This document shows positions 3,252 through 17,890 of a stretch of DNA of 24,000 nt, piece by piece (the first letter of the stretch is position 1; each line of letters begins with the position of its first letter). A model generated the notes under the pieces. The model had not been told where the DNA came from and did no database searches. It was given only the letters and a program-made list of their open reading frames with translations. The stretch comes from an uncultured Halobacteriales archaeon (GTDB taxonomy: Archaea; Halobacteriota; Halobacteria; Halobacteriales; SW-7-71-33), in contig CAYODS010000006.1 of the NCBI GenBank assembly GCA_964402765.1, positions 1 to 24,000 on the forward strand. The letters run 5' to 3'. The translations under genes were made by a program, and so were the position numbers.

Positions 3252-6200
3252 TCAGCCCGACTCCCCTCCCGAGACGGACTCGGGATCCGGGTCGGCGCCC
3301 GGCTCCGACGCTTCAGAGTCCGGGGCGAGTTCGTCCCGCAGTCGGCGGAACTCCTCGCGGCGCTCCGCCAGGTCGAGGTCGTCCGCGGCGTCGATCCGCT
3401 CCAGAGCGCGCTCACACCACTCCCGGGCGGCCTCGTCGTCGCCGGACTCGCGCTCGAGGTCTTGGAGACGCTCGACGGTCTCGAGCCCCTCCCTGACGGC
3501 GCCCATCCGGTCGTAGCGGTCGAGTGCCTCCTGTAGGTGCTCACGCGCCCGTTCCGTGTTCCCGCGCCGTTCGGCGACATCCGCGAGCGTACCCAGGGCG
3601 TTCGCCTCGCCACGGACGTGCCCGATCTCGACGAACACCGACTGTCCCTCACGGGCGTACTCGCGGGCCCGGTCGAGGTCATCCTGCAACACGGCGACCT
3701 TGCCGAGGTTGTTGAGACAGCCCCCGACGGACTCGGGGTCGCCGAGCCGCCGGTTCTCCGCAAGTGCCCGCTCGAAGAACTCCCGCGCCCGGTCGAGGTC
3801 GCCCTCCTCGCCCGCCACCATGCCGAGGTTGTTGAGCGCTCCGGCCACGCCGTCCCGGTCGCCGATCGTCTCACAGAGGTCGAGCGCCCGCTGGAACTGC
3901 TCTCGCGCCCGGTCGTGTGCGCCGCGGTCGAAGGCGACGTTGCCCAGGTTGTGCAGGGCGATGGCCTCTCCCTGGCGGTCCCCGAGGGCACGGGCGAGTT
4001 CGAGACCGTCGAGGTAGTGCTCCCGTGCGTCCTCGAGGGCGCCCTTCATCCGCTCGACGGTGCCCAGGTCCGTGAGGATCCCCCGCACGGAGCGACGGTC
4101 GCCGGCTTCGCGGGCGATCTCCAGGCTTCGCCGGAACCGCTCGCCCGCCCGGTCCAGGTCGCCGCGCTTCCTGTCGACCCAGCCGAGCTGGTTCAGACAC
4201 TCCGCGACCCTTCCCCGGTCGTCACCCCGTCGCGCCCGCTCCAGTGCCGTCCGGGCGTGCTCCTCGGCGGCGTCGTAGTCGTCACGGGCGTGTGCCACCT
4301 CCGCGAGCCCGAGCGGCCGGACCACGCCCTCGTCCGGCAGCGACTCGAACGCCCGCTCGGCGCGCTCGGGGTCGCCACGGTTCAGCGCCGCCCGGCCGAG
4401 CCAACGGTCCAGGTCCGCCTCCGTGACCCGCTCGCACGCCGCCGGTAGGTCGACGCTCGCGCCGGACGCGCCGAACAGCGGAACCACCTTCGGGCGCTCC
4501 CGGGCCAGCGAGAACAGCGCCTCGGCGGTCTCGTCGGCCCACTCCGTCGGCGCCGCCTCGACCCGGGGCAGTGCCGACGCCTCGGTCTCCTGGCGGAGCC
4601 GCTCGCGGCGCCGTGGGTCGTCGGCGAGCGCGAGCAGCCGCGAGATGGCCCGGCCGAACCGCTCCGTGGCCCGCTCCGCGTCCGCGGCCGCGGCGAGAAA
4701 CGCCGTCGCCCACGCCTCGTGGACCGTCCGGTAGGTGCCGTCGTCGCCCACGCCGAACAGCAGTCGACCGTCCAGCAGGTCGACCGTCCGCTCGGCCGTC
4801 TCCTCGCCCGGCTCGGCCAGCGCGTGGAGGTGTCCCGGCCCGAACGGCACCCCGGCGGCGGTCAGCGCCGCCGCCGTCGTCGCCACGCTGACGGAGTGTT
4901 CTTCCTCCGAGACGCGCTCGCGGAGCCGCTCGACGGCCTCCTCCAGCGTGGTCGAGTCCTCGGCCAGCGGGTCGGCGTACAGCGCCAGCCGGTGGGTGAG
5001 CAACAACACCTCGTCCGGCGCCGCCCCGTCGCCGCCGGGGCCCCGGTCACCCTCGATCGTCTCCCGCAGGCGCTCGACCGGCACGTCGATCGTCGTCTCG
5101 GCGGTCCGCTCGAACTGCTCGACCACGCGCCGGTAGTCGGTGTCGTCGAGCGACGGCATCGGCTCGACGGCGAGGTCGAGGGCGTCGAGGTCGGTCGCCG
5201 GCGCCGCCGGCGGGTCGTGCCACTCCGACAGGCGGGCGTCGAACAGGAACGAGACCGACGCCCCGGCCAGCCGTCTCGCCGCCTCGACGGCCCCGACCGC
5301 CCCGGGCTGGACGACGTCCTCGACGACCACCAGCGTGTGCCCGTCGGTCGCCTCGACGGCGGCGACGAGGTCGTCGACCGACTCGACCGCCGCCCCGCGC
5401 CCGCGCTCCCGGTACAGCACCGGCCCGTGCCCGGCGTCGTACCACTCGCAGGCGACCTGCTTGCACACCGTCGACTTCCCCGACCCCGGTGGGCCGACGA
5501 CCAGCGTGTCCTCGCCCGCCGTCAGGGCCGCCAGCAGGCGGTCGGTCAGCGACTCGCCCTCGTCTGTCGTCCGGTCGGCGGCGTAGCCGCTCTGGACCTC
5601 GGCCACGTCCAGCCCGGCACGCCACGCCGTCGCCGGGTCCGCGACGGGACTGTCGACGAAGTACGACCGGTCCAGGGCGACGAACCCCTCGCGCTCCAGT
5701 GCGACCGGCAGTCCGCCCCGCCCGTCGTCGAGGTCGCTGGCCCCCGTCTCCCTGGCGACGGACGCCGTCACCGGCGTGGCCGCTGACCGCAGGTCGGCGT
5801 AGGTCGACTCGGCCCAGCGAACGGCCGCCTCGGCGTCGTTCCGGATCACCGCGTGGACGCCCCCGTCGACGACCACGACCACCGTGACGACCGTCCGGTC
5901 GCCGGTCTCGGCGACGACGACCCCGAACGACGGCACCTCGCCCGTCAGCAGTTCGAACTCCTCGGCGGCCATCGCGCGCAGTTCGCCCCCGAACCTGGCG
6001 GCCAGGGATTCCCGGACCGCCGGGGAGACGACCACCTCGACCGCGGCGTCGTCCCTGACGACGCGGTCGTACAGCAGCCGCGCCGTCGGCGCCGAGACGG
6101 TCGGCAGGGCGGCCCGGACCCGGTCGGCCTCGCGGAGACTCTCCCGGAGTCGCCCTGGCGCCCGGTAGCGCTCGCCGTCGGACGGGCCGACGACCTCAGC

Positions 6201-6530
6201 GTCCGACAGCACGGCGGGGACGAGCGGGGCGTCAGCCGGGAGTGGGTCAAGCGCCCCCTGGGCCGCCACCACCCCCTCTACGCGACGCCGGTGTGCCCGG
6301 TGGGCGTCCAGTGCCAGCCGACCCGACGGCGTCAGCGCGTAACCCTCGCTGTCGTCGCTCCCCTCGACGAACCCGGCGGCCGCCAGTCTCCGCACCGCAC
6401 GGCTGGCGGTGCTCTTCGAGACGTCGGTACGGTCCGCCAGCTCACCGAGCGTCAGCCGGTCGTCCGCCAGTGCCCCCAGCAGGTGTCGGCGCCGGGCCAG
6501 CAGGTCGACGGGGTCGTCGGCGTCCTCCAT
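3252..6530 (-). CDS. Multidomain regulator-like protein: winged-HTH plus COG4742/FilR1-like regulator module, P-loop NTPase (STAND/AAA-like), and C-terminal TPR array
   Basis: 1092-aa ORF starting at ATG 6530. The wHTH is at aa 10-75 (LGELADRTDVSKSTASRAVRRLAAAGFVE...GYALTPSGRLAL). A regulator C-domain-like block covers aa 150-250 (VVVVVDGGVHAVIRNDAEAAVRWAESTY). Walker A GPPGSGKST is at aa 346-354 (nt 5469-5495). Walker B-like LVVVEDV is at aa 400-406 (nt 5313-5333). A helical linker follows, then six or more 40-aa TPR-like units at aa 776-1015 with degenerate flanking units, and an acidic tail. Confidence 0.85.
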   Translation of the reverse strand: MEDADDPVDLLARRRHLLGALADDRLTLGELADRTDVSKSTASRAVRRLAAAGFVEGSDDSEGYALTPSGRLALDAHRAHRRRVEGVVAAQGALDPLPADAPLVPAVLSDAEVVGPSDGERYRAPGRLRESLREADRVRAALPTVSAPTARLLYDRVVRDDAAVEVVVSPAVRESLAARFGGELRAMAAEEFELLTGEVPSFGVVVAETGDRTVVTVVVVVDGGVHAVIRNDAEAAVRWAESTYADLRSAATPVTASVARETGASDLDDGRGGLPVALEREGFVALDRSYFVDSPVADPATAWRAGLDVAEVQSGYAADRTTDEGESLTDRLLAALTAGEDTLVVGPPGSGKSTVCKQVACEWYDAGHGPVLYRERGRGAAVESVDDLVAAVEATDGHTLVVVEDVVQPGAVGAVEAARRLAGASVSFLFDARLSEWHDPPAAPATDLDALDLAVEPMPSLDDTDYRRVVEQFERTAETTIDVPVERLRETIEGDRGPGGDGAAPDEVLLLTHRLALYADPLAEDSTTLEEAVERLRERVSEEEHSVSVATTAAALTAAGVPFGPGHLHALAEPGEETAERTVDLLDGRLLFGVGDDGTYRTVHEAWATAFLAAAADAERATERFGRAISRLLALADDPRRRERLRQETEASALPRVEAAPTEWADETAEALFSLARERPKVVPLFGASGASVDLPAACERVTEADLDRWLGRAALNRGDPERAERAFESLPDEGVVRPLGLAEVAHARDDYDAAEEHARTALERARRGDDRGRVAECLNQLGWVDRKRGDLDRAGERFRRSLEIAREAGDRRSVRGILTDLGTVERMKGALEDAREHYLDGLELARALGDRQGEAIALHNLGNVAFDRGAHDRAREQFQRALDLCETIGDRDGVAGALNNLGMVAGEEGDLDRAREFFERALAENRRLGDPESVGGCLNNLGKVAVLQDDLDRAREYAREGQSVFVEIGHVRGEANALGTLADVAERRGNTERAREHLQEALDRYDRMGAVREGLETVERLQDLERESGDDEAAREWCERALERIDAADDLDLAERREEFRRLRDELAPDSEASEPGADPDPESVSGGESG
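3486..4205 (-). repeat. Six tandem 120-bp (40-aa) TPR-like coding repeats inside the 3252-6530 CDS
   Basis: Units begin AECLNQLGWV.., RGILTDLGTV.., AIALHNLGNV.., AGALNNLGMV.., GGCLNNLGKV.. and ANALGTLADV... Each has the pattern ..LG.V....GDLDRARE.F..AL......GD. DNA-level echoes such as cgcgcccggtcgaggtc recur with a period of 120 bp. Confidence 0.75.
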
Positions 6531-6561: not shown

Positions 6562-7260
6562 TCAGTTCGGGTCCTCGAGCACCACGGGAACGCCGCTCTC
6601 GGCCACGTCGGCCGCGAAGGCGCGCTCGTCGGTCTCTATGGCCTCGAAGGTGTCGTAGTGTACCGGCAACACGAGGTCGGGGTCGGCCGCGGCGGCCAGG
6701 GCGGCGGCCTCGTGGCGGTCCATCGTGAAACTGCCACCGATCGGCGGCAGCAAGAGGGAGGCGGCGAGGTCGGCGTGGAAGTCCAGCACGTCGGTGTCGC
6801 CCGGCCAGAACACCGGCAGGCCGTCGACGCGGACCCGGAACCCGACGCCGAACCCCTCCGGGTGGTACGGGGTGCCGTCCTCACGGACGTGGCCGTCGGG
6901 CCGGTTGTGCGCGGGGAAGGACTCGACGCGGACCCCGTCCACCCGGAGGGCGTCGTCCTGGCCGATCCGGTTCACGCGCCGGTCCAGCTCCTCCGGCGGG
7001 ACCACGTCGCGGTCGATCCCCGCCGGGTCGACGCCGTCGTACACGACGAGCGTGGCGTCCTCGCTCGCGACGCGGTCGATCCCCTCGGAGTCGTAGTGGT
7101 GGTCGTGGGTCACACAGACCACGTCGCCGTCGCGGGGCTCGTGGCCGTCGAGCACGCCGTACCGTCCGGGGTCGAGGTAGACGACGCCGTCGCTGCCCTC
7201 GATCCGGACGGTGGCGTAGCCGAGCCAGTCGACGCGCAGGCCCTCGTGTCGGACTGTCAT
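6562..7260 (-). CDS. MBL-fold metal-dependent hydrolase (beta-lactamase superfamily, UPF0173-like)
   Basis: 232 aa. N-terminus: MTVRHEGLRVDWLGYATVRIEGSDGVVYLDPG. Metal-binding motif VCVTHDHHYD (HxHxDH variant). Later residues include PGDTD and LPVHYDTF. Confidence 0.8.
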   Translation of the reverse strand: MTVRHEGLRVDWLGYATVRIEGSDGVVYLDPGRYGVLDGHEPRDGDVVCVTHDHHYDSEGIDRVASEDATLVVYDGVDPAGIDRDVVPPEELDRRVNRIGQDDALRVDGVRVESFPAHNRPDGHVREDGTPYHPEGFGVGFRVRVDGLPVFWPGDTDVLDFHADLAASLLLPPIGGSFTMDRHEAAALAAAADPDLVLPVHYDTFEAIETDERAFAADVAESGVPVVLEDPN

Positions 7261-7298: not shown

Positions 7299-9599
7299 TC
7301 AGGTGCTCTCTTCGACCTCGGTCACGTCGAGATCGAGCACCTGGTTCACCTCGTACTTCGTGGAGTAGCCCACCTCGTACAGCATCACCAGACCGTTCGT
7401 GTCGTGGCTCCCCGCGTCAGCGAACTCGTAGACGACGACCACCTGGTTGCTCTGCAGGTCGAACGTGCCCCCGCTGGTGTAGGGGTCGACGATGTCGGCC
7501 ACGCGCCGCTGCCAGCCGACGGGCGTCCCGCCGTCCGTGACGCTGCTCACCGGGTCGCCCGCGACGGCGACGTGGACGTCGGCCGCACCACCGACACTCG
7601 ACAGCCCCGGTCCGGCACACCGGTACTCGTTGTAGTGGTCGTCGAAGTCTCCCCTCACGGCGTCGTTGTACGGGTACTGGGCGGCGCTCGAGTTGTTCGT
7701 CCGGTACCCCCACTCCCTGTCGACCAGGGTGCGTTCGCCGCTCTTGTTGACGTCACAGGTGTACCGCTCGACCTCGGTGGTGAGCTTCTCGCCGTCGGTC
7801 AACAGCCCCGGCGTCTCGACGCGCCCGCCGTACTCCTGGTGGACGGCGTCCGCGACGGGACTACCGCTGTCACCCCAGGTCTTGCCGTCGTGGGTGTGCT
7901 CGACGGTCACCGGCTCGTGCAGCACACCACGGATGTCCGTGATGTAGTAGGTGTCGGTGCCGTTTGGCACCCTGTAGGAGTAGTTCTCGCCCTTGCCGAT
8001 GAGGTTCTCGAAGGTGTCGTCGAGCTCCTCGCCCTCGCCCTTGTACACGTGGTCGTACTCGGCGTCGGTGTCGGCGGCGACGTCTTTCATCAGCCCCTTG
8101 TTGACGTCGCTGTCGCTGCCGAACGTCACCGTGTACACCTTGTACCCCTTGTCGATGGCGTCCGCGACGGGGCAGTTGTCGCTGGGTGAGGTACTGCCGC
8201 CCAGCGGTCTGCCACAGGACGGGTCGTACGGGCCGGCCCCGCCGTTCGGCTCCCCGTCGGTCATCATGATGATGACCTCGCTGCGGTTGGGGTCCTGCCC
8301 GAGTTCGGACATCGCCTCCTCCAGTCCGTCGTCCATCGGGGTGCCGCCGCTGTCGCTGAGACCGCTGGCCGCGCTCTTGACGTCCCCGAGGTTCGATGTC
8401 AGTCCCTGGTGGACCTTCGTGTTCCCGCCGTGGCTGCCGGAGTAGCCGACCAGCGCCGCCTTGTGACTCTTGTTGTCGCTCTGCAGCCGCGAGGTGAACT
8501 GCTTGACCGCCGCCTTCGTGTCGGAGATCTGCTGGCTGCTCATCGACCCGGACTCGTCCATCAGGAACACCACGTCGAGCGGCTCCTCGCTGCCGGGGTC
8601 CCAGACCCACTTGTAGTCGGGCACCTCCTTCTCGTGTCTGTGGGACTCGTTGTACCCCACGTCGCCGCCGAGCACCTGTGCAGTGAGCCCGTACCGGTTG
8701 TCGTCGGCGGGCTTGTCGACGACGATGTCGACGCCGCTGCCGTTTCTGACGACGGTCCCGTACGCGTCCGGGCCGGACTCGTTGAACGCGACGACCCTGT
8801 TGCGGGAGTCGTTGACGGCGTCGAGCAGCACCCGCTCGGGCATCTCGACCTCGACCCTGTCGGCCGCCGGCGTCGACACCGTCACCCCGCTGACGTCGCC
8901 GAGACGGGACTCGAAGTACCGCTCCCAGCCGCCGGCCCGCTCGCTCTCGACTATCAGCTTCACGCCGTCCGGACGGTTACAGTCCTGGGTGGCGAACAGG
9001 TTCCGAAGCGCCTGCTTCGTCTGCTGGACCGACCCCTCGACGTCCCGGCTGGCGGTGAACTCGTGGGTCAGGTCAGCGGGCAAGTCGAACACCGAACTCT
9101 TCACAGTCCCCTCAGTCAACCCGACGTCCGGCGGCGTGTCGACGACCGTACTGCCGTCCTGGGTGACGAATACGCCGCCCGCCTGGTAGCTGATCACCGT
9201 GCGGTCGTTGACCTCGTAGTCCACGCGGTCGAGGGGCACCGTCGCCTCGCAGGCGCCGGTGTATCCCGTCCCGTCGTGGAAGCGTATCGTCAACTGGTCG
9301 GTCGTGTCCACCCGCACCGACTCCTCGTCACCGACGCGGTCGGTGATCTCGAACGAGACCGCCGAGGAGTCACTCCTGACGGAGAGGTCCGCGAGGGAGG
9401 CGTCGAGTTCCTCGACCGACCCGATCGCCGACTCGTACCTGCTCTGTTCGGAGATCTGGTTCTGTGCGCTCGTTCCCGTGACGACCACCAGTGCCGCCCC
9501 AGCGATGACGAACCCGAATAGTAGTGCGATACCGATGACCTCCGAGACGCCGCGGTCCGGCGCCCCCCCTGGTGACAGTTCTCTATCGCTGGCGTCCAT
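7299..9599 (-). CDS. P2: pilin-signal/vWA family paralogue
   Basis: 766 aa, ATG start. N-terminus: MDASDRELSPGGAPDRGVSEVIGIALLFGFVIAGAALVVV. MIDAS residues: DVVFLMDESGSM (DESGSM is nt 8541-8558), SGGTPMDDGL, VIIMMTDGEPN. The vWA segment is roughly nt 7995-8582. Collinear with P1, P3 and P4 in the N- and C-domains, including four conserved Cys (aa 117, 207, 615, 661). Confidence 0.9.
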   Translation of the reverse strand: MDASDRELSPGGAPDRGVSEVIGIALLFGFVIAGAALVVVTGTSAQNQISEQSRYESAIGSVEELDASLADLSVRSDSSAVSFEITDRVGDEESVRVDTTDQLTIRFHDGTGYTGACEATVPLDRVDYEVNDRTVISYQAGGVFVTQDGSTVVDTPPDVGLTEGTVKSSVFDLPADLTHEFTASRDVEGSVQQTKQALRNLFATQDCNRPDGVKLIVESERAGGWERYFESRLGDVSGVTVSTPAADRVEVEMPERVLLDAVNDSRNRVVAFNESGPDAYGTVVRNGSGVDIVVDKPADDNRYGLTAQVLGGDVGYNESHRHEKEVPDYKWVWDPGSEEPLDVVFLMDESGSMSSQQISDTKAAVKQFTSRLQSDNKSHKAALVGYSGSHGGNTKVHQGLTSNLGDVKSAASGLSDSGGTPMDDGLEEAMSELGQDPNRSEVIIMMTDGEPNGGAGPYDPSCGRPLGGSTSPSDNCPVADAIDKGYKVYTVTFGSDSDVNKGLMKDVAADTDAEYDHVYKGEGEELDDTFENLIGKGENYSYRVPNGTDTYYITDIRGVLHEPVTVEHTHDGKTWGDSGSPVADAVHQEYGGRVETPGLLTDGEKLTTEVERYTCDVNKSGERTLVDREWGYRTNNSSAAQYPYNDAVRGDFDDHYNEYRCAGPGLSSVGGAADVHVAVAGDPVSSVTDGGTPVGWQRRVADIVDPYTSGGTFDLQSNQVVVVYEFADAGSHDTNGLVMLYEVGYSTKYEVNQVLDLDVTEVEEST

Positions 9600-9840: not shown

Positions 9841-11984
9841 TCCGCGGACATCGAGGTCGACTTGCCGACGGTGTACATCACGACGGCGCCGTTGAGGTTC
9901 GAGCCGGTCGGGTCGCTGTAGGCGACGACCACCTGGTTGCTCTGCAGGTCGAACGTCCCGCTGTCGGTGTAGGGAGCGACCATCTGGTCGAAGTTCGTCT
10001 GCCAGGCGGGCGAGGAACTCGACGGCACGCTGTCGCCGTCGGTGAACACCTGCACCGTGCTCGGGGTCTTCTTGGAGCTGTGGTCGACCGAGTCACACCG
10101 GTACTGGTCGTAGGCGTCGTACTTGTACTTCGGCTTGATTGTCGGCGGCCCGCTGCCGGTGTCGACGACGAGGTCCGAGACGTTCGACGGGAGCGACATC
10201 GAGGCGGGTTCGGTGGGCTTGTTTTTCACGCTTGCGCAGTCGAACAGATTCGCGCGGATCTTCATCCGCTTGCCGTCGGGCAGCGAGGGGACGGCGGTGA
10301 CGTACTCCTGGTAGTTGACCGCCTGCTGGACCTTCGTGGTGCCGCTGACGACGGGCTCGTAGCCGCCGCTGCCGACCTTCTGTTCCAAGACGACGGGCTT
10401 GCGGACGATCTTCGGCGGCTCGGTCAGGTTGTACACCGTCTTCGTGCCGACGGTCCCGTTGTACACCTTGTACCCCAGGTCGTTGACGATGAGCTTGTAC
10501 TCGTCACCGATGGCTTTCGCCTCCGAGATGTGGGCGTAGAGCCCGCCGGTGTTGAACGCGATGCTCCCCAGGGTGGTCTTGTCAGCCCCCGGCCCGAACC
10601 CGATGGTGTAGATCTTGATGCCGTGGTTGTTTGCCTTCTTGACCATCCCGTACGGGTACGAGGCGTGCCCGTCTGACATCAGGGCGATCACCTTGTTGCG
10701 GTCAGACCCCGTGTTCTTCAGCTGATTGATGGCGTGGGACAACGCCGGAGTGAAGTCAGTGCCACCGCTGGCGCTCAGACTGTCCACCGAGTCCTTCAGC
10801 GCCGCCCGGTCGCTGGTGAGACCCTTGTGCGGGTTCGCCCCGCTGTCGAAGCCGACGAGCGACGCTTTGTGGTCCCGATTGTTGGGGAACTCGTCGAGGA
10901 ACTTCCGTATCGGGTCTTTGGTGTTGTCGATCTCGTCGTTCATCGAGCCGGACTCGTCGACCAGGAACACGATGTCCAGGGGCTTGCCGTCCTTGCTCTT
11001 CCACACCCGACCGGTGATGTTCTGCTCCGTCTTCGTCACCTTACCGTTCGTCTGGCCGTACTGCGTCCCGAGCAACTGTGCGGTGACCTTGTAGCTGTTG
11101 TTCGTACCCTTGTCGACCCAGAGCTTCGCACCGTTGCCGTCCGGGATGACGTCGCCGGCGATCGTCTTGTTCGTGAAGTCGACGACGTTGTTGCGGTCGT
11201 CGTCGGTCTCCTTCACCAGCTGAGAGTTGTTGATCACCGCCGTGACCGTCGAGCCGCTGACCGTCACCGACACGCCGGAGGGAGTCTCATCGCGGAGGTG
11301 TTTCGCCCACACTTCCGTGTCGTCCGTGTCGATCGTGACCCGCACCTTCTCCGGGCGCTTGCAGGCACTGTTCCCGAACAGGTCCGACTTCTTCTTGGCG
11401 GTGACCTCCTTGGACCGCTCGACGTCATGTTCGACCCCGAACTCGTCGTCCTGGATGTCGCTCTTGAACTTGGTGAGCCGCAGGCCGAGGGTGCCCTCGC
11501 TGAACCCGAGGTCCGGCTCGCTGACGATCTTCGTGTGGTTCCCCGTCGTCTTGAACACGCCGCCGGCCTGGTGGGTAAATGTCGTCTCGTTGTCGACGTC
11601 GTACACGATCTCCTGCAGCGGGATCGAGGTCATACAGTCGGAACGGAACTTGTTTCCGTCGTGTAACTCGACGGTTACGCTGTCGCCTGTCTCCATGTGG
11701 ACCGACTCGCCGTCGGCGTCACGGTCGGTCAGGTCGAACGAGACCTGTTTCGGCGCGCCGTCGCTCGTGACGTCTGACAGTTTCGTGTCGAACTGCTGAA
11801 CGGCCTTCTCTGCCGACTCCACCTGTCCCTGTTCCTCGAAACTGCTCTGGGCCGAGGTCCAAGTCACGGCGACCAACGCCGCGCCGGCCACGATCAGGCC
11901 GAACAGGAGGACGACGCTTATTACCTCCGAGATACCACGACGCTGGTCCCCCAGGTCAGGACCGTCTCCGCGATCCCCCTTCAT
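9795..11984 (-). CDS. P3: pilin-signal/vWA family paralogue (Lys-rich, lower-GC member)
   Basis: 729 aa, ATG start. N-terminus: MKGDRGDGPDLGDQRRGISEVISVVLLFGLIVAGAALVAV. MIDAS residues: DIVFLVDESGSM, SGGTDFTPAL, VIALMSDGHAS. The vWA segment is roughly nt 10470-10982. Conserved Cys at aa 117, 208, 583 and 630. C-terminal blocks: TFDLQSNQVVVAY, VVMYTVGKST, VDLKVDVVEPEN. Confidence 0.9.
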   Translation of the reverse strand: MKGDRGDGPDLGDQRRGISEVISVVLLFGLIVAGAALVAVTWTSAQSSFEEQGQVESAEKAVQQFDTKLSDVTSDGAPKQVSFDLTDRDADGESVHMETGDSVTVELHDGNKFRSDCMTSIPLQEIVYDVDNETTFTHQAGGVFKTTGNHTKIVSEPDLGFSEGTLGLRLTKFKSDIQDDEFGVEHDVERSKEVTAKKKSDLFGNSACKRPEKVRVTIDTDDTEVWAKHLRDETPSGVSVTVSGSTVTAVINNSQLVKETDDDRNNVVDFTNKTIAGDVIPDGNGAKLWVDKGTNNSYKVTAQLLGTQYGQTNGKVTKTEQNITGRVWKSKDGKPLDIVFLVDESGSMNDEIDNTKDPIRKFLDEFPNNRDHKASLVGFDSGANPHKGLTSDRAALKDSVDSLSASGGTDFTPALSHAINQLKNTGSDRNKVIALMSDGHASYPYGMVKKANNHGIKIYTIGFGPGADKTTLGSIAFNTGGLYAHISEAKAIGDEYKLIVNDLGYKVYNGTVGTKTVYNLTEPPKIVRKPVVLEQKVGSGGYEPVVSGTTKVQQAVNYQEYVTAVPSLPDGKRMKIRANLFDCASVKNKPTEPASMSLPSNVSDLVVDTGSGPPTIKPKYKYDAYDQYRCDSVDHSSKKTPSTVQVFTDGDSVPSSSSPAWQTNFDQMVAPYTDSGTFDLQSNQVVVAYSDPTGSNLNGAVVMYTVGKSTSMSAEFAVDLKVDVVEPEN

Positions 11985-12090: not shown

Positions 12091-12155
12091 ACCCGGTCGA
12101 CGGGCGTGGCGTGCGTCCGAAACCCATTAGGGACGGACCGGTCGTATCCCTTCGC

Positions 12156-13148
12156 ATGGTCACGTTCCTGTCAGGCGGCACCGGGACGCCGAAGCTGTTG
12201 GACGGCGCCGCGGCGGCGTTCTCGCCCGGGGAGACGACGGTGGTCGCGAACACCGGTGACGACGTCGAGATCGGTGGGCTGCTCGTCTGTCCGGACCTCG
12301 ACACGGTGCTGTATCAGGGTGGCGGCGTGCTGGACCGCGAGACGTGGTGGGGTGTCAGCGGCGACACGGACCGCACGCACACGGCGCTGCACGACATCGC
12401 GGACGCCGCCGAACTGTCGACCGAGCCACAGTACCTGGACGACGAGCGCCAGACCGCCGGCCGGAACATCGCCGACTGGCGGCGGTTCTCCGGCGCCGGC
12501 GAGTTCATGCGGATCGGCGACCGTGACCGCGCCTTCCACATCACCCGCACGAGCCTGATCGACCGAGGACACACCCTCAGCGAGGCCACCGAGGTGCTCG
12601 CGGACGGGATGGGCGTCTCGATCGACATCCTCCCGATGAGCGACGACCCCGTCGCCACGCTCGTCCACACCCCCGACGGGGTGATGCACTTCCAGGAGTT
12701 CTGGGTCCACCACGACGGCGAGCCAACCGTCGAGAACGTGGAGTTCCGCGGCGCCGCCCGCGCCGACCCCGCGCCGGGCGTCCTCGACGCGCTGGAGGAC
12801 ACCGTCGTGATCGGCCCCTCCAACCCCGTCACCGGCATCGGCCCCACGCTCGCGCTGCCAGGCGTCGCCGAGGCGCTGCAGGAGACCACCGTCGTCGTCG
12901 TCTCGCCGTTTGTCGAGGGCGAGGCGTTCTCCGGGCCCGCGGTGAAGCTGATGGACGCCGTCGACGCCGACCCCGGCACCGCCGGGCTGCCGCGCGCGTA
13001 CCCCTTCGCCGACGCGTTCGTGATCGACGAGGACGACGCCGTCGAGTTCGACGTGCCCACGGTCCGCACCGATATCTCGATCGACGGCCGCGAGGACGCC
13101 GCCCGCGTGATCGAGGCCGTCACCGACGCCGTCGCGGAGGTCCGGTGA
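12156..13148 (+). CDS. cofD: 2-phospho-L-lactate transferase (LPPG:FO transferase, coenzyme F420 biosynthesis)
   Basis: The N-terminus [17 protein letters not shown]...[25 protein letters not shown] is the CofD/YvcK-family signature. Later residues include [20 protein letters not shown]. The ORF track starts at GTG 12111, but ATG 12156 gives the canonical N-terminus. Confidence 0.85.
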
Positions 13149-13149
13149 C

Positions 13150-13935
13150 GTGCGGGCCCGTCTCGCGCTGGCGAGCCTGAGCGGCCGGTCGGACGCCGAG
13201 TGGGCCCGCGACGGTGCCCCACGGGCCGACGTCGCGTTTCTGGGCGGGTTCGCGCTCGACGGGCCGACGAGGTCGGCCGCACGCGGCGCCGTCCTCCGGG
13301 ACCGCGAGGAGTTCCTGCCGCCCGACCCCGTCACCTTCGTCGCGGACCAACTCGACGCACTGGCCGACGCCCCCGTCCGCCCCGGCGTGAACGTCCGTGC
13401 CGTTGATCCCGACGCCGTCGGGTCTGTCGCGCGGGTGTGTGCCGCTCGCGACGCGGTGATCGAGGTCAACGCCCACTGTCGCCAGCCCGAGACGACCGCC
13501 GCCGGCGCCGGGCAGGCACTGATGCACGACCCCGAGCGACTCGCCGCCCACGTCCGGACGGCCAGCGAGACGGGCGCGACGGTCTCGGTCAAGCTCCGCA
13601 CCGAGGTCGACGGCGTGGACCTGCCCGCCCTCGCCGGGCGACTCGCGGACGCCGGGGCCGACGCCGTCCACGTCGACGCGATGGACTCGGAGGGCGTCGT
13701 CGCCGGCGTCGCCGCCGCCGCGCCCGGCACCTGGGTGATCGCCAACAACGGGGTCCGGGACCGCCGCACCGTCAGGGAGTATCTCGCGTACGGCGCGGAC
13801 GCCGTCAGCGTCGGCCGTCCGAGCACCACGCCCGCCGTTCTCCGTCGCGTGCGGACGGCCGTCGACGGGTGGTTCGACGCCGGGGCGTCCACGCCGACAG
13901 AGGGCACCGAGCGCGCCCCTCGGTCGTCGGGGTAG
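13150..13935 (+). CDS. Dus-like FMN-dependent TIM-barrel oxidoreductase (dihydrouridine synthase / dihydroorotate dehydrogenase superfamily)
   Basis: 261 aa. GTG 13150 lies 1 nt after the cofD stop codon, so the two genes look coupled. The EVNAHCRQPE motif resembles the Dus active-site Cys context. Other matches: VSVKLR, GADAVHVDAM, ANNGVRD..., YGADAVSVGR (a phosphate-binding-like C-terminus). The family assignment is from memory only. Confidence 0.55.
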   Translation: MRARLALASLSGRSDAEWARDGAPRADVAFLGGFALDGPTRSAARGAVLRDREEFLPPDPVTFVADQLDALADAPVRPGVNVRAVDPDAVGSVARVCAARDAVIEVNAHCRQPETTAAGAGQALMHDPERLAAHVRTASETGATVSVKLRTEVDGVDLPALAGRLADAGADAVHVDAMDSEGVVAGVAAAAPGTWVIANNGVRDRRTVREYLAYGADAVSVGRPSTTPAVLRRVRTAVDGWFDAGASTPTEGTERAPRSSG

Positions 13936-13950: not shown

Positions 13951-16131
13951 TCAGTCCTCGAACTCCACCACGTCGACCGTCAGGTCGATCGTGGCGGTGG
14001 CGCTGGTCGAGTGTGGCGCCCCGACACGGTACAGCAGGACCGCGTTGTTCGTCTCCCCGGCACCGTCGCCGTCGTCGTCGTAGGAGAACGCCACGATCAC
14101 CTGGTTGCTGTCGAGGGCGAACTCCTCGGCGCCGTCGCCGTCGATGTCGGCGGCGTGGGGGGCGACCATCTCCCTGAACTCCGTCTGCCACTCGGCGGGC
14201 TGGTCGCCGACGGCGGCGTTGACCGGATCGCCGCGGACGTACCCGTCGGCGTCGGCTGGCGGACTGTACGTCGTCGTCACCTCGCACTCGTAGTGGTCGT
14301 AGTACGCGGGGTCGGTCTCGTAGGCCGGCTTCAGGTCGAAGTCGTCGTCGAAGGCGTCCGAAGGGAGCGGGACCCGGGTCCGGAAGGGGGTGTCCGCCTG
14401 GTCGTCGTGGTCGGGACACCCGTAGAAACTGGCGGTCGTGCTCAGGGGCTCGCCGTCCGCGAGTGTCGGCGGCGTCACGACGTACTCCTCGTAGTTGACC
14501 GCCCGGTAGACGGGGCTGGCCCCGCCGACCATCGACTCCCAGGTGCCGCCGCCGAGGCGGTACCGGAGAACGACGGGCTCGTGGACGATCCGCATCGTGC
14601 TGACGTTCGCCTCGACGGCCTTCAGGGTGAGATTCGGGAGCCCGTCGTACAGGTGCATGTAGAACCCGCGGCCGCCACGGTTCTGGATCCGGATCTTGTT
14701 CGACTCCGGGGTGAACAGGAACGTCCGGTCGGCGTCGTCACCGAGCGCGTCGGTGTGGTTGTAGAGTGTCGTCCAAGAGCCGCCGTCTTTCTCCTGGATC
14801 TCGAACCTGGCGTCGTCGAGCAGCTCCCTGTCCGTCGCGGCGGCCAGGACGACCGGCTCACCCGGGTCGACGGTGTACTCCTTCCAGGTGCCGCAGTTGT
14901 TGTACACCACCCACGCCGCCGCCCCCGGCCCCGTGGTCGGCCTGTCGACGCCGCTGGCGCTCGTACAGGTCGACCCCTTCGCGTCGGTCTTCACCGGGTA
15001 ACTCTCCTCAAGCAGGGAGGCGGGCACGCCCGCGATGACGGCACCCGACCCGACGTAGTCGGTGACGTCGACGTCGGCCCTGCCGACGACCCGACCCGAC
15101 CCGTCGACGGTGACGAGTTGCAGCTTCTCGCTGCGGTTGGCCGCCCGACGGAGCAGGGAGCCGTCGATCTCCTTCACCGTCGTGTTCACCGTGAGGTGCT
15201 GCTGACCCGTCTGCGCCCCCAGGAACTCGGTGGAGACGTCGTAGGCGTTCGAGTCGTCGGGCTTGTCCACCTCGATCTCGACCGCCCGGGAGTGTTCGCT
15301 GACCGTTCCGGGGAGCGTGCTGGTGTTGAAGCCGACGACCTGGTTGCGGTCGTCGTCCGCGCGCTCGACGAGCGTGCCACCGCCCAGTTCGACCGTGACC
15401 TCGTCGGGCGTCGAGACGACCGTCGCCGAGTCCGGGGTCTCCTCACGGAGGTGTTCGCTCCAGGCGGCCGTGTGGTCGGTCTCGACGACGAGTTTCACGC
15501 CGTCCGGCCGCCGACAGCCCTCGCCGTCGAACAGGTCCCGGCGCACCTGGTCGGTGGTCCGGCTGGACGCCGTCACGTTCCGGGTCACCTCGAGCCTGCC
15601 GCTGCCGGCGTCGTCCGGCAGCGCCACCGTCCACACGTTCAGGGTGCCGTCGCTGAACCCCACGTCCGGGGCGGTGACGAACTCCGTCGACCCGTCCTCC
15701 TGGCGGAGCACCCCGCCACCCTGGTACACCATCGACGTCTCGTCGGTGACGCGGTAGCGCACCTCGTCGAGGGGCACCGTCACCTGGCACTCCGGCACGT
15801 ACCCGGCGTCGGTGCGCACCCACAGCCGCAACTGGTCGTCTCGCTGGACCGTGACTCGCTCGCCCTCACCGTCCAGCTCCGCCAGGTCGAGCGTATCACT
15901 CCTCGCCTCTCCCTGTGTCGCCACGTCGGTGAGCCGACTGTCGAACTCCTCCATCGTCACCTCGGCGGACTCCACCCGTATCTCTGTCTCCACCCCCGAC
16001 CCGGCCTCCGACCACGCGACCGCGAGGATCGCCGCCGCGGAGACGACCAGCCCGAAGAGGATGACCAGACTCATCAACTCCGAGACGCCCCGGCGTCCGT
16101 CCCCCCGGCTCGTGGCCGGCCTCCCCCTCAT
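13951..16131 (-). CDS. P4: pilin-signal family paralogue lacking the vWA domain (the middle domain is replaced)
   Basis: The ORF track gives 13951-16281, but its first 50 codons run through the AT-rich promoter region. ATG 16131 gives MRGRPATSRGDGRRGVSELMSLVILFGLVVSAAAILAV (726 aa), collinear with P1-P3. The N-domain (C115, C206, YQGGGV, DDDRNQVVGF, VDKPDD) and C-domain (C572, C616, LDSNQVIVAF, VLLYRVG, IDLTVDVVEFED) are conserved. No DxSxS/MIDAS is present in aa 320-512 (nt 14596-15174). Confidence 0.85.
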   Translation of the reverse strand: MRGRPATSRGDGRRGVSELMSLVILFGLVVSAAAILAVAWSEAGSGVETEIRVESAEVTMEEFDSRLTDVATQGEARSDTLDLAELDGEGERVTVQRDDQLRLWVRTDAGYVPECQVTVPLDEVRYRVTDETSMVYQGGGVLRQEDGSTEFVTAPDVGFSDGTLNVWTVALPDDAGSGRLEVTRNVTASSRTTDQVRRDLFDGEGCRRPDGVKLVVETDHTAAWSEHLREETPDSATVVSTPDEVTVELGGGTLVERADDDRNQVVGFNTSTLPGTVSEHSRAVEIEVDKPDDSNAYDVSTEFLGAQTGQQHLTVNTTVKEIDGSLLRRAANRSEKLQLVTVDGSGRVVGRADVDVTDYVGSGAVIAGVPASLLEESYPVKTDAKGSTCTSASGVDRPTTGPGAAAWVVYNNCGTWKEYTVDPGEPVVLAAATDRELLDDARFEIQEKDGGSWTTLYNHTDALGDDADRTFLFTPESNKIRIQNRGGRGFYMHLYDGLPNLTLKAVEANVSTMRIVHEPVVLRYRLGGGTWESMVGGASPVYRAVNYEEYVVTPPTLADGEPLSTTASFYGCPDHDDQADTPFRTRVPLPSDAFDDDFDLKPAYETDPAYYDHYECEVTTTYSPPADADGYVRGDPVNAAVGDQPAEWQTEFREMVAPHAADIDGDGAEEFALDSNQVIVAFSYDDDGDGAGETNNAVLLYRVGAPHSTSATATIDLTVDVVEFED

Positions 16132-16154
16132 TACCGTCAACGTCTGTCGCTGTC

Positions 16155-16170
16155 GGACAAAAAATTTCTG
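16155..16170 (-). promoter_or_regulatory. TATA-like A/T run for P4
   Basis: The minus strand reads CAGAAATTTTTTGTCC, centred about 30 nt upstream of ATG 16131. Confidence 0.4.
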
Positions 16171-16350
16171 CCTATCTCGCTCTCGGTTAAATTTTCGTCG
16201 TGTGCGAGGGCTCAAACCCCGGAGACCGAACGTCACCACCGAGCGGTCGGTCCCAACCTGACGCCCGGGGCGCCCTCCCACCGGGCCGGGAGCGGGCGGT
16301 GCCTGCTTCGCGGTGGGCGAGGACGACGGCGGGGTCGGGGTGCCGCGGCG

Positions 16351-16358
16351 GGTTTAAG
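16351..16358 (+). promoter_or_regulatory. TATA-like box (GGTTTAAG) for the CitG-like gene
   Basis: Centred 27 nt upstream of ATG 16382. The same GGTTTA core sits at -27 of asd and of the MFS gene. Confidence 0.45.
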
Positions 16359-16381
16359 TGTCGGCCCGCGAACCGGGAGGT

Positions 16382-17224
16382 ATGCGAACGGCAGGGCACG
16401 CACAGCTCGCGCTCCTGCTGGAGGTGGCGAGCACGCCGAAGCCGGGAAACGTCGACCGCGACCGGGACCACGACGACCTGCGGTTCGATCACTTCCTCGC
16501 GGGCGCGGTCGGTGCCCGGGACGGCGTCGCGGCGATGGCCGACCCCGCGGTCGGCGTGGGCGAGGCGTTCGAGCGGGCCGTCGCCGGGATGAGCGAGCAG
16601 GAGGGCGGCAACACGCAGTTCGGCGCCCTGTTGAACCTCGCGCCGCTGGCGCGGGCCGGGGCCGACCCGGACCGGTCGCTCGACCCCGACGGCGTGCGGG
16701 GCGTCGTCGAGGCGACGGACGTGGACGACGCTGCCGCATTCTACCGGGCCTTCGAGCACGTCGCCGTCGCGGTGCGAGACCCGCCGGAGGGCCTGGAGCC
16801 ACTGGACGTGCGCCGGGGGGCCGACGCCGTCGAGACGGTCCGGGAGCGCGAGCTGACCCTCGGCGATGTGATGGACCTCTCCGCCGGCCGCGACGGGGTC
16901 GCCCGCGAGTGGGTCGAGGGCCACGAGCGCACCTTTCGTGCTGCCGACGGCATCGTGGAGGGCGAGGGCCCGATCACCGACCGCGGCGCCGAGGTGTACC
17001 TCCAGTTGCTCTCGCGGGAACCGGACACGTTCGTGGTCGACACTCACGGCCGCGAGACTGCCCGGAGCGTGATGGTCCGCGCACAGGAGGCCCGCGAGGG
17101 TGGGCCCGAACTCGTCCGGGCGTTCGCCGAGTCACTCGTCGCGGAGGGCATAAACCCCGGCACGACGGCGGACATCGTGGCCGGCGCGCTGTTCGTCGCG
17201 CTGGAACGCGGAGTCGAGGTGTAA
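16382..17224 (+). CDS. Triphosphoribosyl-dephospho-CoA synthase family protein (CitG/MdcB-like, COG1767)
   Basis: The N-terminus MRTAGHAQLALLLEVASTPKPGNVDRDRDHDDLRFDHFLAGAV matches the CitG-family pattern (..E....PKPGlVdr...G.H.Dm....f..Sa). GINPGTTADIVAGALFVAL lies near the C-terminus. The ORF track starts at 16358; ATG 16382 is preferred because of the TATA spacing. Confidence 0.65.
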   Translation: MRTAGHAQLALLLEVASTPKPGNVDRDRDHDDLRFDHFLAGAVGARDGVAAMADPAVGVGEAFERAVAGMSEQEGGNTQFGALLNLAPLARAGADPDRSLDPDGVRGVVEATDVDDAAAFYRAFEHVAVAVRDPPEGLEPLDVRRGADAVETVRERELTLGDVMDLSAGRDGVAREWVEGHERTFRAADGIVEGEGPITDRGAEVYLQLLSREPDTFVVDTHGRETARSVMVRAQEAREGGPELVRAFAESLVAEGINPGTTADIVAGALFVALERGVEV

Positions 17225-17227
17225 GAG

Positions 17228-17890
17228 ATGGACGCCCCGGACGACCCGCCCACCGGCGAGTGGCCCGACGCCGTCCCCGCCGACGGCGTCACCGAGTCCC
17301 TCGTCGCCACGCTCGGCCCGAACGACCGCTGGAACTTCGCCGCGCTGGGCCTGCAGACCGGCGCGGCGGCCGCGGCCGTGGACCGCGACGGCGTGGTGGA
17401 CCCGCCCGAGGGGACCGTCGGCCCGGTGACCGCCCGCACCTGGGGCCGGACCCGGACCCGCGGCAACTTCGAGCGCCAGGACGGCGGCGTGGTCCAGTTC
17501 GTGGACGACCCGCTTGCGTTCGTGGCGGCGGCCCTGGGGATCGTCGAGCGCGACGACCCCGTCCACCCCGCGGCGGCCGCCCACGTCCGCGTCGACGCAC
17601 AGCGCCTGGCCGTGGGCGAGGCCGGCGACACGGAGTGGGCCGACTGGCACCTGCGACCCCGCGAGACGGTCGTCCGGCGGCGCTCGGTGCCGACGATCCG
17701 GCGGGGGTTCGCCGCGACGGTCGAGGCGACGGTCCACGCCTCCCGCCTGGACGTGCCCGCATACGACGACGGCGAGTTGCTCGACCGCCTCGAGTTCCTC
17801 GCCGAGGTGGTCGACTCGGCGGGCGGTGAGCGCGAGCGCCGTGCCTTCGAGCGGATCGACGACCTCACCGACTGGCGCGGGCGGCGCTGA
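17228..17890 (+). CDS. DUF447-like (FMN-binding split-barrel-like) protein, coupled to the CitG-like gene
   Basis: 220 aa. The ATG lies 3 nt after the upstream stop codon. GVTESLVATLGPNDRWNFAALGLQ resembles the DUF447 N-terminal pattern (e.ivtT......N.aPmG.). Pairing of CitG-like and DUF447 genes is a recurrent archaeal arrangement as far as I recall. The family call is not verified. Confidence 0.5.
   Translation: MDAPDDPPTGEWPDAVPADGVTESLVATLGPNDRWNFAALGLQTGAAAAAVDRDGVVDPPEGTVGPVTARTWGRTRTRGNFERQDGGVVQFVDDPLAFVAAALGIVERDDPVHPAAAAHVRVDAQRLAVGEAGDTEWADWHLRPRETVVRRRSVPTIRRGFAATVEATVHASRLDVPAYDDGELLDRLEFLAEVVDSAGGERERRAFERIDDLTDWRGRR

Follow-up and report, generated by a model that had tools for sequence, protein, structure and literature searches.

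An unrelated beta-sandwich module in place of the vWA domain in a pilin-like, putative surface protein of a Halobacteriales archaeon

Introduction

Surveys and studies of modular pilins have so far been confined to bacteria (PMC8179133). Two type IV pilins of Streptococcus sanguinis are built in this way: PilB joins a pilin to a vWA domain, and PilC joins a pilin to a concanavalin-A-like lectin (PMC8179133, PMC9934059). MIDAS-bearing adhesive modules are also found on filament-associated proteins of other assembly systems (sortase pili, type V fimbriae and Tad), including SpaC, RrgA, GBS104 and Mfa5, and TadG, from the bacterial Tad pilus, is given as an example of a pilus component with vWA (PMC4858521). 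None of these proteins has been reported with its vWA domain swapped for a beta-sandwich of the type described here.

The stretch of Halobacteriales DNA analysed (24,000 nucleotides, hereafter the window) encodes four paralogues on the minus strand, P1-P4, which have in common an N module (~315 aa) and a C module (~210 aa) that carries no annotation (Table 1). As in PilB and PilC, an N-terminal pilin-type module appears to bear a grafted binding module, and as in S. sanguinis a single organism has both a version with an intact-MIDAS vWA domain (P1-P3) and a beta-sandwich, possibly lectin-like, version (P4). The same idea, that the identity of the module sets ligand specificity, would apply to both. 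PilB and PilC are bacterial proteins assigned to IPR012902, whereas P1-P4 are archaeal, carry DUF7289 and a Pilin_N-like signature, and are known from sequence alone. The variable module of P1-P4 is internal rather than terminal as in PilB and PilC, because the extra conserved C module follows it, and the P4 beta-sandwich is not concanavalin-A-like by any test run, unlike the PilC lectin. The vWA profile of the P1-P4 family matches the vWA domains of the pilus tip adhesins SpaC, RrgA/GBS104 and Mfa5. The locus offers a clean natural module replacement in a multi-paralogue family of putative archaeal surface proteins, in which an internal module has changed and both flanks have been kept.

A conserved scaffold around a divergent centre

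All four proteins exceed the Pfam gathering threshold of 27 bits for DUF7289 (PF23960), with scores of 76.2 (P1), 77.4 (P2), 79.8 (P3) and 68.7 (P4; E 7.5e-19, aa 14-238). They are members of the haloarchaeal DUF7289 proteins of Pfam, to which their subfamily adds its specific C module. DUF7289 is uncharacterised, and a literature search found no mention of it. In other members the N module is combined with several downstream modules (DUF7305, TSP_3 with VWA, MG2/GLUG), and the modularity of DUF7289 proteins is real only at this coarser level, that of an N module with varied downstream modules.

Pfam VWA matches are confined to P1-P3 (E 1e-14 to 1e-19), in which all three elements of a complete MIDAS (DxSxS, Thr and Asp) are present. 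VWA is absent from P4. Over aa 1-317 (N module) P4 is 34-37% identical to P1-P3, and over aa 513-726 (C module) 26-37%, but the figure falls to 12-16% over aa 318-512. That the flanking blocks align while the middle does not had been proposed in an earlier, sequence-only reading, and MAFFT alignments of four and of ten family members reproduce both blocks. The segment singled out in that reading (14596-15174, minus strand) corresponds to P4 aa 320-512, and every motif quoted from it was found in its place.

Table 1. Positions of P1-P4 and of the parts of P4 in the window
Feature	Position	Strand	Description	Basis
P1	308..2518	-	DUF7289, then vWA (aa 312-524, window 947-1585), then C module	
P2	7299..9599	-	DUF7289, then vWA (aa 342-522, window 8034-8576), then C module	
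P3	9795..11984	-	DUF7289, then vWA (Pfam aa 337-485, window 10530-10976), then C module; closest paralogue of P4	
P4 gene	13951..16131	-	726 aa + stop; DUF7289 pilin-like, no vWA	ORF, translation, Pfam
P4 C module, aa 513-726 + stop	13951..14595	-	Common to P1-P3 and P0122-P0126; two invariant Cys, WQ and SNQ motifs	Alignments
P4 linker from beta-sandwich to C module, aa 498-512	14596..14640	-	One strand modelled at aa 501-505, low confidence after	Alignment; model
P4 core of replacing module, aa 373-497	14641..15015	-	Disulfide-type, Trp/Tyr-rich, all-beta; mobile family without a Pfam model	HMMER, AlphaFold2
P4 linker, aa 318-372	15016..15180	-	Short helix (aa ~324-333) and beta-hairpin strands; contains LQLVTVDGSGRV	AlphaFold2, orthologue
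P4 N module, aa 1-317	15181..16131	-	Class III signal-peptide-like start (RRGVSEL, then hydrophobic helix) and DUF7289; common to P1-P3	Alignments

The start of P4 is the ATG at 16131, where third-codon-position GC rises from 0.60 in the AT-rich upstream region to 0.94 within the gene. The C module has no Pfam match, and PDB sequence searches with it and with the P4 mid domain gave chance-level matches only, so that no relative of solved structure was found for the C module by sequence; the best match of the mid domain, an agarase chain (8wac_A, E 0.064), is weak. An AlphaFold2 model of the whole of P4, built from its sequence alone (pLDDT 38), is too poor to define how the scaffold folds or how the central module is inserted in it.

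The central segment of P4 is not a vWA domain

Within P4 aa 320-512 nothing rises above a Pfam threshold, and no vWA match appears in Pfam or NCBIfam even at E<=1. Profile-profile comparison (hhalign) of the P4 middle with the vWA profile of its paralogues gave a probability of about 0.1% (0.14% and 0.13% for profiles built from 2 and 68 sequences, respectively). The AlphaFold2 model of aa 311-520 (pLDDT 82, pTM 0.76; pLDDT >90 in the all-beta core) has 15 beta-strands and a single 10-residue helix and is not alpha/beta Rossmann-like, and vWA is absent among the best 50 PDB fold matches listed by Foldseek. The segment is not homologous to vWA. The sequence-only reading was therefore right that an unrelated segment stands in place of the vWA domain on a kept scaffold, and the case it had named as refuting, a degenerate vWA fold revealed by a sensitive profile search, is not what the profile comparison returned. 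It was also right that the MIDAS is missing: neither an aligned Thr nor TDG is present, and there is only a D-G-S-G-R look-alike at aa 343-347. That reading did not remark that the look-alike, LQLVTVDGSGRV (D-x-S-x-R), sits at the position of vWA beta1/DxSxS.

A mobile, Trp/Tyr-rich beta-sandwich family

An exhaustive HMMER search found the domain (query positions ~58-180) in 119 representative proteins (clusters at 50% identity) at E<=1e-3 and in 23 at E<=1e-10, with non-orthologue matches down to 1.7e-44. A hybrid full-length alignment of the scaffold with domain fragments was misaligned by MAFFT, which stretched the fragments across the query, and a mid-region alignment was used instead. 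The family signature is WP..D..C..P.TG.GAA.WF..GCG.WK.Y ... GFY..VY, with conserved Trp/Tyr, and P4 retains the family-conserved P379, D383, C389, G401, A405, W407, C413, K417, D434, E447, W453, P475, F490 and Y491. The module had been described from the sequence as beta-rich with its own Cys pair; this agrees with the all-beta model, and Cys389 and Cys413 are the conserved pair of the family (kept in 88% and 85% of members, respectively).

The domain is mobile, being placed N-terminally, internally or C-terminally in its host proteins, and its partner domains are extracellular in type (PKD, CARDB, Big). The P4 core is a bona fide member of this separate family. Among the 119 representatives, a motif scan of residues 1-40 shows the domain joined to a pilin-like N-terminus of the DUF7289 type only in P4 and its orthologue P0002. 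The best matches, P0003 and P0004, are Tat-signal proteins; P0003 is ~51% identical to P4 in the domain, as close as the P4 orthologue, and a member of its cluster sits in a haloarchaeal genomic context. The family shows no consistent Pfam matches and lacks a model in Pfam, and hypothetical is the only annotation its members bear. An undescribed mobile extracellular domain family is brought to light.

What might such a module bind? The best listed PDB fold matches are jelly-roll CBMs (CBM70, 4, 6, 16, 32 and 35), Cry toxin domains and TNF-like folds. All are weak: Foldseek gave no match at E<=1e-3 (all at least 4.9e-3), with TM-scores normalised by target length of 0.3-0.44. A fold search of BFVD likewise gave only weak matches, to phage tail and minor structural proteins. 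The top structural matches, CBM6, CBM32, CBM35, CBM4, CBM16 and CBM70, resemble the P4 core in belonging to the all-beta sandwich class (~120-130 aa), in their conserved aromatics and in their mobility in secreted multidomain proteins. However, the P4 core has no significant sequence or structure similarity to any defined CBM family, and the signature and Cys pair are specific to its own family. We infer that the new module may be a binding module, most likely a glycan- or lectin-like one; since the structural similarity to CBMs is weak, the lectin reading draws on fold class and aromatic conservation. Given the strong signature and the confident predicted fold, the domain lends itself to definition as a new family and to binding studies.

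Homologues, age and direction of the replacement

The orthologue P0002, from an independent metagenome assembly (ENA ERZ28435515), has 724 aa and the same architecture as P4, to which it is 56% identical over the full length (57% in the N module, 51% in the replacing module and 63% in the C module). Synteny is kept at its locus, with CitG/DUF447, then P4, then Dus/CofD, then P3. In the neighbour-joining tree of the scaffold, (P2,(P3,(P4,P0002))), with bootstrap values of 0.97 and 0.84, P4 is nested among paralogues that bear vWA, as do all other members. This nesting indicates a single old replacement, in which the vWA domain would be the ancestral module and would have been lost once, long ago, in the P4 lineage. 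GC3 is uniform at 0.93 across the N module, cassette and C module of P4, and tests for a recent transfer of the cassette by composition and junction repeats were negative, with no junction repeats. The most probable donor is a secreted protein of haloarchaea, similar in type to P0003/P0004.

When P4 was the query, a word-indexed search for homologues returned P4 itself and one orthologue, and a search with the four-paralogue profile returned 14 proteins; the C module alone found nothing. Genome contigs scanned with mid-domain patterns yielded no relative, and the same kind of scan with the family alignment identified one Halobacteriales MAG bearing orthologues of P3 and P2. A scan of metagenome contigs found nothing, and the alignment of the C module was too variable for pattern building. 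All 11 other full-length relatives found, namely P1-P3, P0122-P0126 and the P3/P2 orthologues in L001 and L002, keep the vWA domain. The proposal of an exchangeable cassette site on a constant scaffold is therefore only partly supported: the vWA domain has been replaced and the scaffold kept, but recurrence is not seen, and the evidence amounts to one old replacement common to P4 and P0002, the two sequences in which the swap is seen. The survey suggested earlier for other cassettes at the same site gave none among these 11 proteins, and it covers few sequences because the homologue searches returned few.

Decay, vestige or artefact?

The segment might have been expected to be a vWA fold that had merely lost its MIDAS residues. 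MAFFT places LQLVTVDGSGRV under beta1/DxSxS with D and S invariant across ten sequences, its distance from the scaffold "GQ" is nearly that of the vWA motif (26 aa versus 24), and at ~195 aa the segment is similar in length to vWA with its linkers. Taken alone, however, the LQLVTVDGSGRV match is not significant, since a score as high is reached by 11.8% of shuffled sequences and by 28 of 243 real segments without vWA; a similar hairpin motif also precedes the core in the non-vWA homologues P0009 and P0004 (by eye). Together with the hhalign result, the all-beta model, the absence of vWA from the listed fold matches and the membership of the core in an independent family found in many non-vWA proteins, this makes a decayed vWA domain very improbable. 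A partial replacement, in which the first vWA strand (aa ~336-346) is a vestige and the remainder was swapped for an imported beta-sandwich, has somewhat more to recommend it but is still improbable. The D-x-S-G look-alike coincides with the position of the MIDAS motif and is kept in the orthologue, in which the linker segment is 56% identical, and a post hoc estimate puts the probability that this score arises by chance at exactly that position at a low ~1e-3 to 1e-2. The observation is itself post hoc, and its significance depends on the positional argument. The segment has a pLDDT of ~70-75, and its modelled strand forms part of a beta-hairpin (pLDDT ~73). The profile match to P0004 and P0009 reaches into this segment and a comparable motif precedes their cores, which suggests that the hairpin may have arrived together with the cassette. 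It is barely credible that the swap is artefactual and reflects a chimeric assembly, a frameshift or a pseudogene rather than a functional protein. The window seemingly derives from a metagenome-type contig and one other sequence has the same architecture, but that sequence comes from an independent assembly with the same three parts and conserved neighbours, and the 726-aa ORF of P4 is intact with uniform GC3.

The pilin-like N-terminus and a possible role

The N-termini of P1-P4 have a basic stretch, an "RRGVSEL/VSEV/ISEV/VTEV" motif and then hydrophobic helices of the LLFGLVVAGAAL type, and a motif like a [KR]-G/A cleavage site is present. This motif we take to be the archaeal Pilin_N signature. 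Pilin_N (PF07790) scores below its cut-off of 25.2 bits on P1 and P3 (15.6-15.8 bits, E 0.027-0.03), as does TIGR02537 on P1 (17.8 bits against 20), and P4 matches neither model; the DUF7289 relative P0130 passes Pilin_N (25.9 against 25.2).

In the explanation that we favour and hold to be likely, a single old replacement of vWA by a beta-sandwich altered binding in a pilin-like surface protein. P1-P4 would be paralogous secreted or membrane-anchored surface proteins. Each would begin with a pilin-like module of archaeal type, continue with a module that binds a ligand and end in the conserved C module, and the middle module would originally have been a vWA domain with a complete MIDAS. In the P4 lineage one domain-shuffling event would have put an unrelated segment of ~180 aa in its place, consisting of a short helix and hairpin followed by an all-beta, disulfide-bearing, Trp/Tyr-rich sandwich of ~125 aa. 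An adhesin role for P1-P4 is suggested by analogy with the proteins described above. The swap probably alters what the surface protein sticks to, and the adhesin whose ligand specificity it would change may be displayed at or close to a structure resembling a type IV pilus. If the adhesin reading is true, the four paralogues form a compact system for how haloarchaea diversify attachment specificity. A more far-reaching version, which we regard as doubtful, has the ~125-aa sandwich founding a new, widespread glycan- or surface-binding family of archaea and bacteria, and P1-P4 as archaeal modular pilins, functional counterparts of PilB and PilC, in which the swap would direct the type IV pili of haloarchaea to glycans instead of MIDAS-dependent ligands.

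P1-P4 could instead be N-terminally anchored envelope proteins, acting in matrix or S-layer interaction or in sensing rather than as pilus-associated adhesins, with a beta-sandwich that is structural and does not bind a ligand. The window contains no genes for pilus assembly (ATPase, TadC or prepilin peptidase), and the P1-P4 genes are dispersed in it; this reading is also favoured by the Pilin_N scores, sub-threshold on P1 and P3 and absent on P4, and by a domain family of hypothetical proteins that lacks a Pfam model. Yet the N-terminus is similar to the archaeal Pilin_N signature in its basic residues, R-G, V/I-S/T-E and run of ~22 hydrophobic residues, and a DUF7289 relative matches Pilin_N above threshold. 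Intact-MIDAS vWA domains and CBM-like sandwiches are typical binding modules, and haloarchaeal pilins are often encoded apart from assembly genes (PMC4858521). On balance a role away from pili and without ligand binding seems unlikely to us, and an altered binding specificity of a pilin-like surface protein remains the preferred reading.

A gene for a STAND NTPase lies nearby and prompted a defence-system reading, for which PADLOC gave nothing on P1, P3 and P4. The neighbours among which the P1-P4 genes are scattered are housekeeping genes, among them those for CofD, CitG, Asd and an aldo-keto reductase.

Scaffold and Middle Segment of P4

Four paralogous surface proteins (P1-P4) are encoded in this window, which has a G+C content of 62-76% and encodes acidic proteins; a collection of species-representative genomes yielded a single relative, in a Halobacteriales MAG. 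In a mechanical ORF list P4 is longer by 50 codons and starts at a GTG. Third-position G+C is 0.60 in this extension vs 0.94 downstream of the ATG, and this jump, together with the AT-rich, promoter-like character of the extension, shows the ATG to be the true start. With this numbering, window 14596-15174 is exactly aa 320-512, and all motifs quoted in the sequence-only reading lie at the positions it gave.

Features of the window discussed here
Feature	Positions	Strand	Description
P1	308-2518	minus	long ORF, paralogue
Small ORF	2709-3209	plus	166 aa, divergent from P1
STAND protein	3252-6530	minus	1092 aa, between P1 and P2
Metallo-beta-lactamase-fold gene	6562-7260		adjoins STAND gene
P2	7299-9599	minus	long ORF, paralogue
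P3	9795-11984	minus	long ORF, paralogue
CofD-like and Dus-like genes	12111-13935	plus	between P4 and P3
P4	13951-16131	minus	long ORF, paralogue; ATG start at 16131
P4 C module	13951-14595	minus	aa 513-726
P4 domain core	14641-15015		aa ~373-497
KLQLVTVDGSGRV	15090-15128	minus	P4 aa 335-347
P4 upstream extension	16132-16281	minus	GTG at 16281
CitG and DUF447 genes	16358-17890	plus	upstream of P4

The vWA domain of P4 had been read as swapped within a constant scaffold; both flanking blocks reappear when either the four paralogues or ten family members are aligned with MAFFT. Identity between P4 and P1-P3 is 34-37% in the N module (aa 1-317) and 26-37% in the C module, vs only 12-16% in the middle (aa 318-512). 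DUF7289 (PF23960) scores above the Pfam threshold in all four paralogues. Pfam VWA is found in P1-P3 only (E 1e-14 to 1e-19), each with a complete MIDAS (DESxS, downstream Thr, TDG/SDG strand); P4 has no vWA match even at E<=1, scanned whole or as the middle segment alone. Because the flanks align, the middle diverges and VWA and MIDAS are confined to P1-P3, the vWA-less middle of P4 is a real observation, well beyond chance.

The C module, including the equivalent ~210 C-terminal aa of P1-P3, is marked by two invariant Cys, by W-Q and S-N-Q motifs and by an acidic tail. No Pfam model covers it, and a sequence search found no relative of solved structure; it is an undescribed domain, confined to a small haloarchaeal family.

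An Unrelated Module or a Decayed vWA Domain?

Could the middle of P4 be a vWA domain that has decayed? Profile-profile comparison with the vWA profile of the paralogues gives a probability of 0.14% from two sequences and 0.13% from a 68-sequence profile. AlphaFold2 modeling of aa 311-520 from a 68-row alignment (pLDDT 82, pTM 0.76) yields an all-beta core (pLDDT >90), in agreement with the beta-rich insert first proposed, with one short helix and then a hairpin (pLDDT ~73) on the N-terminal side of the core. Among the 50 top Foldseek matches listed from the PDB there is no vWA; jelly-roll carbohydrate-binding modules (CBM70, 4, 6, 16, 32, 35), Cry toxin domains and TNF-like sandwiches make up most of them, and every one is weak (E at least 4.9e-3, target-length-normalised TM at most 0.44). 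A BFVD fold search gave weak matches to phage tail and minor structural proteins. Profile comparison, HMMER family, predicted fold and Foldseek list agree that the segment is unrelated to vWA. A decayed vWA is rejected on the ~0.1% profile probability, the separate family, the all-beta model and the fold matches, and replacement of vWA by an unrelated module is supported.

MAFFT places KLQLVTVDGSGRV of P4 under the vWA motif PLDIVFLVDESGSM (beta1/DxSxS), at nearly equal spacing from the scaffold and with D and S invariant in ten sequences. A vestigial first vWA strand would fit this coincidence of position but is improbable: shuffled sequences reach the position-specific score in 11.8% of cases, as do 28 of 243 real non-vWA windows, so that the motif alone is without statistical significance and notable only for its position, and a comparable motif is seen by eye before the cores of the non-vWA homologues P0004 and P0009 (e.g., LSLVVFNDSGED in P0009). 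Since the profile match to these two carriers of the replacing domain also reaches into the hairpin segment, we lean toward the P4 hairpin having arrived together with the imported cassette.

An Undescribed Extracellular Domain Family

With the middle segments of P4 and its orthologue P0002 as query, HMMER was run exhaustively against 1.84 billion representative proteins and returned 119 of them at E<=1e-3 (23 with E<=1e-10), equal to 119 clusters at 50% identity. Matches span query positions ~58-180, the domain core of P4. Host proteins of 127-1685 aa carry the domain at the N-terminus, internally or at the C-terminus; it is a discrete, mobile unit. When the first 40 residues of the hosts were scanned for motifs, P0002 alone showed a pilin-like N-terminus of DUF7289 type. 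The domain has no counterpart in Pfam: the ten best matches are blank in that region, and no Pfam family recurs over it among 96 carriers. Carriers are annotated "hypothetical protein" in source records, and partner domains are of extracellular types (PKD, CARDB, Big_7, Kre9_KNH), with HEAT repeats also present. This mobile extracellular beta-sandwich of ~125 aa is an undescribed domain family.

The consensus is WPxxxDxxxCxxxxGxxxPxTGxGAAxWFxxGGCGxWKxYxVxPG ... D ... E...GxW ... YTPxSxxIRI ... GFYxxVY. P4 retains nearly all family-conserved positions, and its Cys pair, FEIQEK..W and IRIQN..GFYMHLY, all picked out in the sequence-only reading, are thus family signatures; the supposed "own" Cys pair, Cys389 and Cys413, is that of the family. 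A second Cys pair (D.C..C) occurs in a subset and is missing from haloarchaeal carriers. Acidic composition is lacking in many carriers; the family thus seems not to be limited to halophiles.

Origin and Age of the Replacement

The nearest non-orthologous relatives of the domain, P0003 and P0004, both have Tat-type signals. P0003 is 51% identical to P4 in the domain, equal to P4 vs its own orthologue, and the surroundings of one member of its cluster (P0136) are those of an ordinary haloarchaeal chromosome. The donor was likely a secreted protein of this kind from a haloarchaeon.

A word-indexed search of 5.8 billion proteins found one P4 orthologue, P0002 (724 aa, 56% identical; N 57%, middle 51%, C 63%), encoded in an independent ENA assembly in which the genes follow one another as in the window (CitG, DUF447, P4, Dus-like and CofD, P3 orthologue). 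This shared architecture and synteny rule out a chimeric assembly or pseudogene. The swap is old, as it is shared by P0002, third-position G+C is a uniform 0.93 throughout P4 and no junction repeats were found. A neighbour-joining tree from 456 scaffold columns gives (P2,(P3,(P4,P0002))), with bootstrap values of 0.97 and 0.84. The vWA is present in P1, in the relatives P0122-P0126 and in orthologues on an independent metagenome contig (L001) and in a Halobacteriales MAG (L002); because P4 and P0002 nest among vWA-bearing members, vWA is the ancestral module, and its replacement took place in the P4 lineage.

The idea of an exchangeable cassette site is partly supported, by a single replacement (P4/P0002); vWA is kept in all eleven other full-length relatives found. 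These come from small sets (word-indexed searches gave few proteins, genome and metagenome scans one locus), and a C-module search returned no protein; among the relatives found, the data show one replacement event, not a recurrently exchanged site. Modularity is clear at a coarser level: other proteins join the DUF7289 N module to DUF7305, to TSP_3 repeats with VWA, to DUF7305 with VWA, or to MG2/GLUG regions.

Likely Function and Genomic Neighborhood

The N-termini of the paralogues have basic residues, R-G and V/I-S/T-E followed by ~22 hydrophobic residues, a pattern similar to the N-terminal signature of archaeal type IV pilins. Matches to Pilin_N and TIGR02537 are below cut-off on P1 and P3 and absent from P4; one DUF7289 relative exceeds the Pilin_N cut-off. 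No relative of known structure was found for the scaffold. The family's vWA profile matches the vWA of the pilus or fimbrial tip adhesins SpaC, RrgA/GBS104 and Mfa5. The proposed adhesin-type role is partly supported: ligand binding would involve MIDAS in P1-P3 and a sandwich of lectin or CBM type in P4. In bacterial "modular pilins" a binding module is grafted onto a pilin module, and in Streptococcus sanguinis one such pilin bears a vWA (PilB) and another a lectin (PilC) (PMC8179133), to which P1-P3 and P4 would be counterparts by analogy. TadG is a vWA protein of Tad pili (PMC4858521). Pilus assembly genes are absent from the 24-kb window; in haloarchaea, pilin genes often lie in trans (PMC4858521). 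The P4 swap is not categorically new: it varies the known theme of modular adhesins of surface or pilin-like type, and it brings to light a domain family not described before.

The paralogues are interleaved with CofD, Dus, CitG and DUF447 genes and are therefore dispersed among housekeeping genes, not one operon; L001 has the same order of cofactor-biosynthesis-type genes interleaved with surface-protein paralogues. PADLOC assigned none of P1, P3 and P4 to a defence system. The STAND protein, of the MalT-like signal-transducing regulator type, has winged-helix/FilR1-like HTH domains at its N-terminus, together with numerous TPR repeats and a domain named "novel STAND NTPase 5". The order P3-P2-metallo-beta-lactamase gene is kept in L002. 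The small ORF is probably real, given its third-position G+C of 0.89; its product has a hydrophobic N-terminal helix with a weak, sub-threshold Pilin_N match (E 0.0023) and may be a small pilin-like partner.
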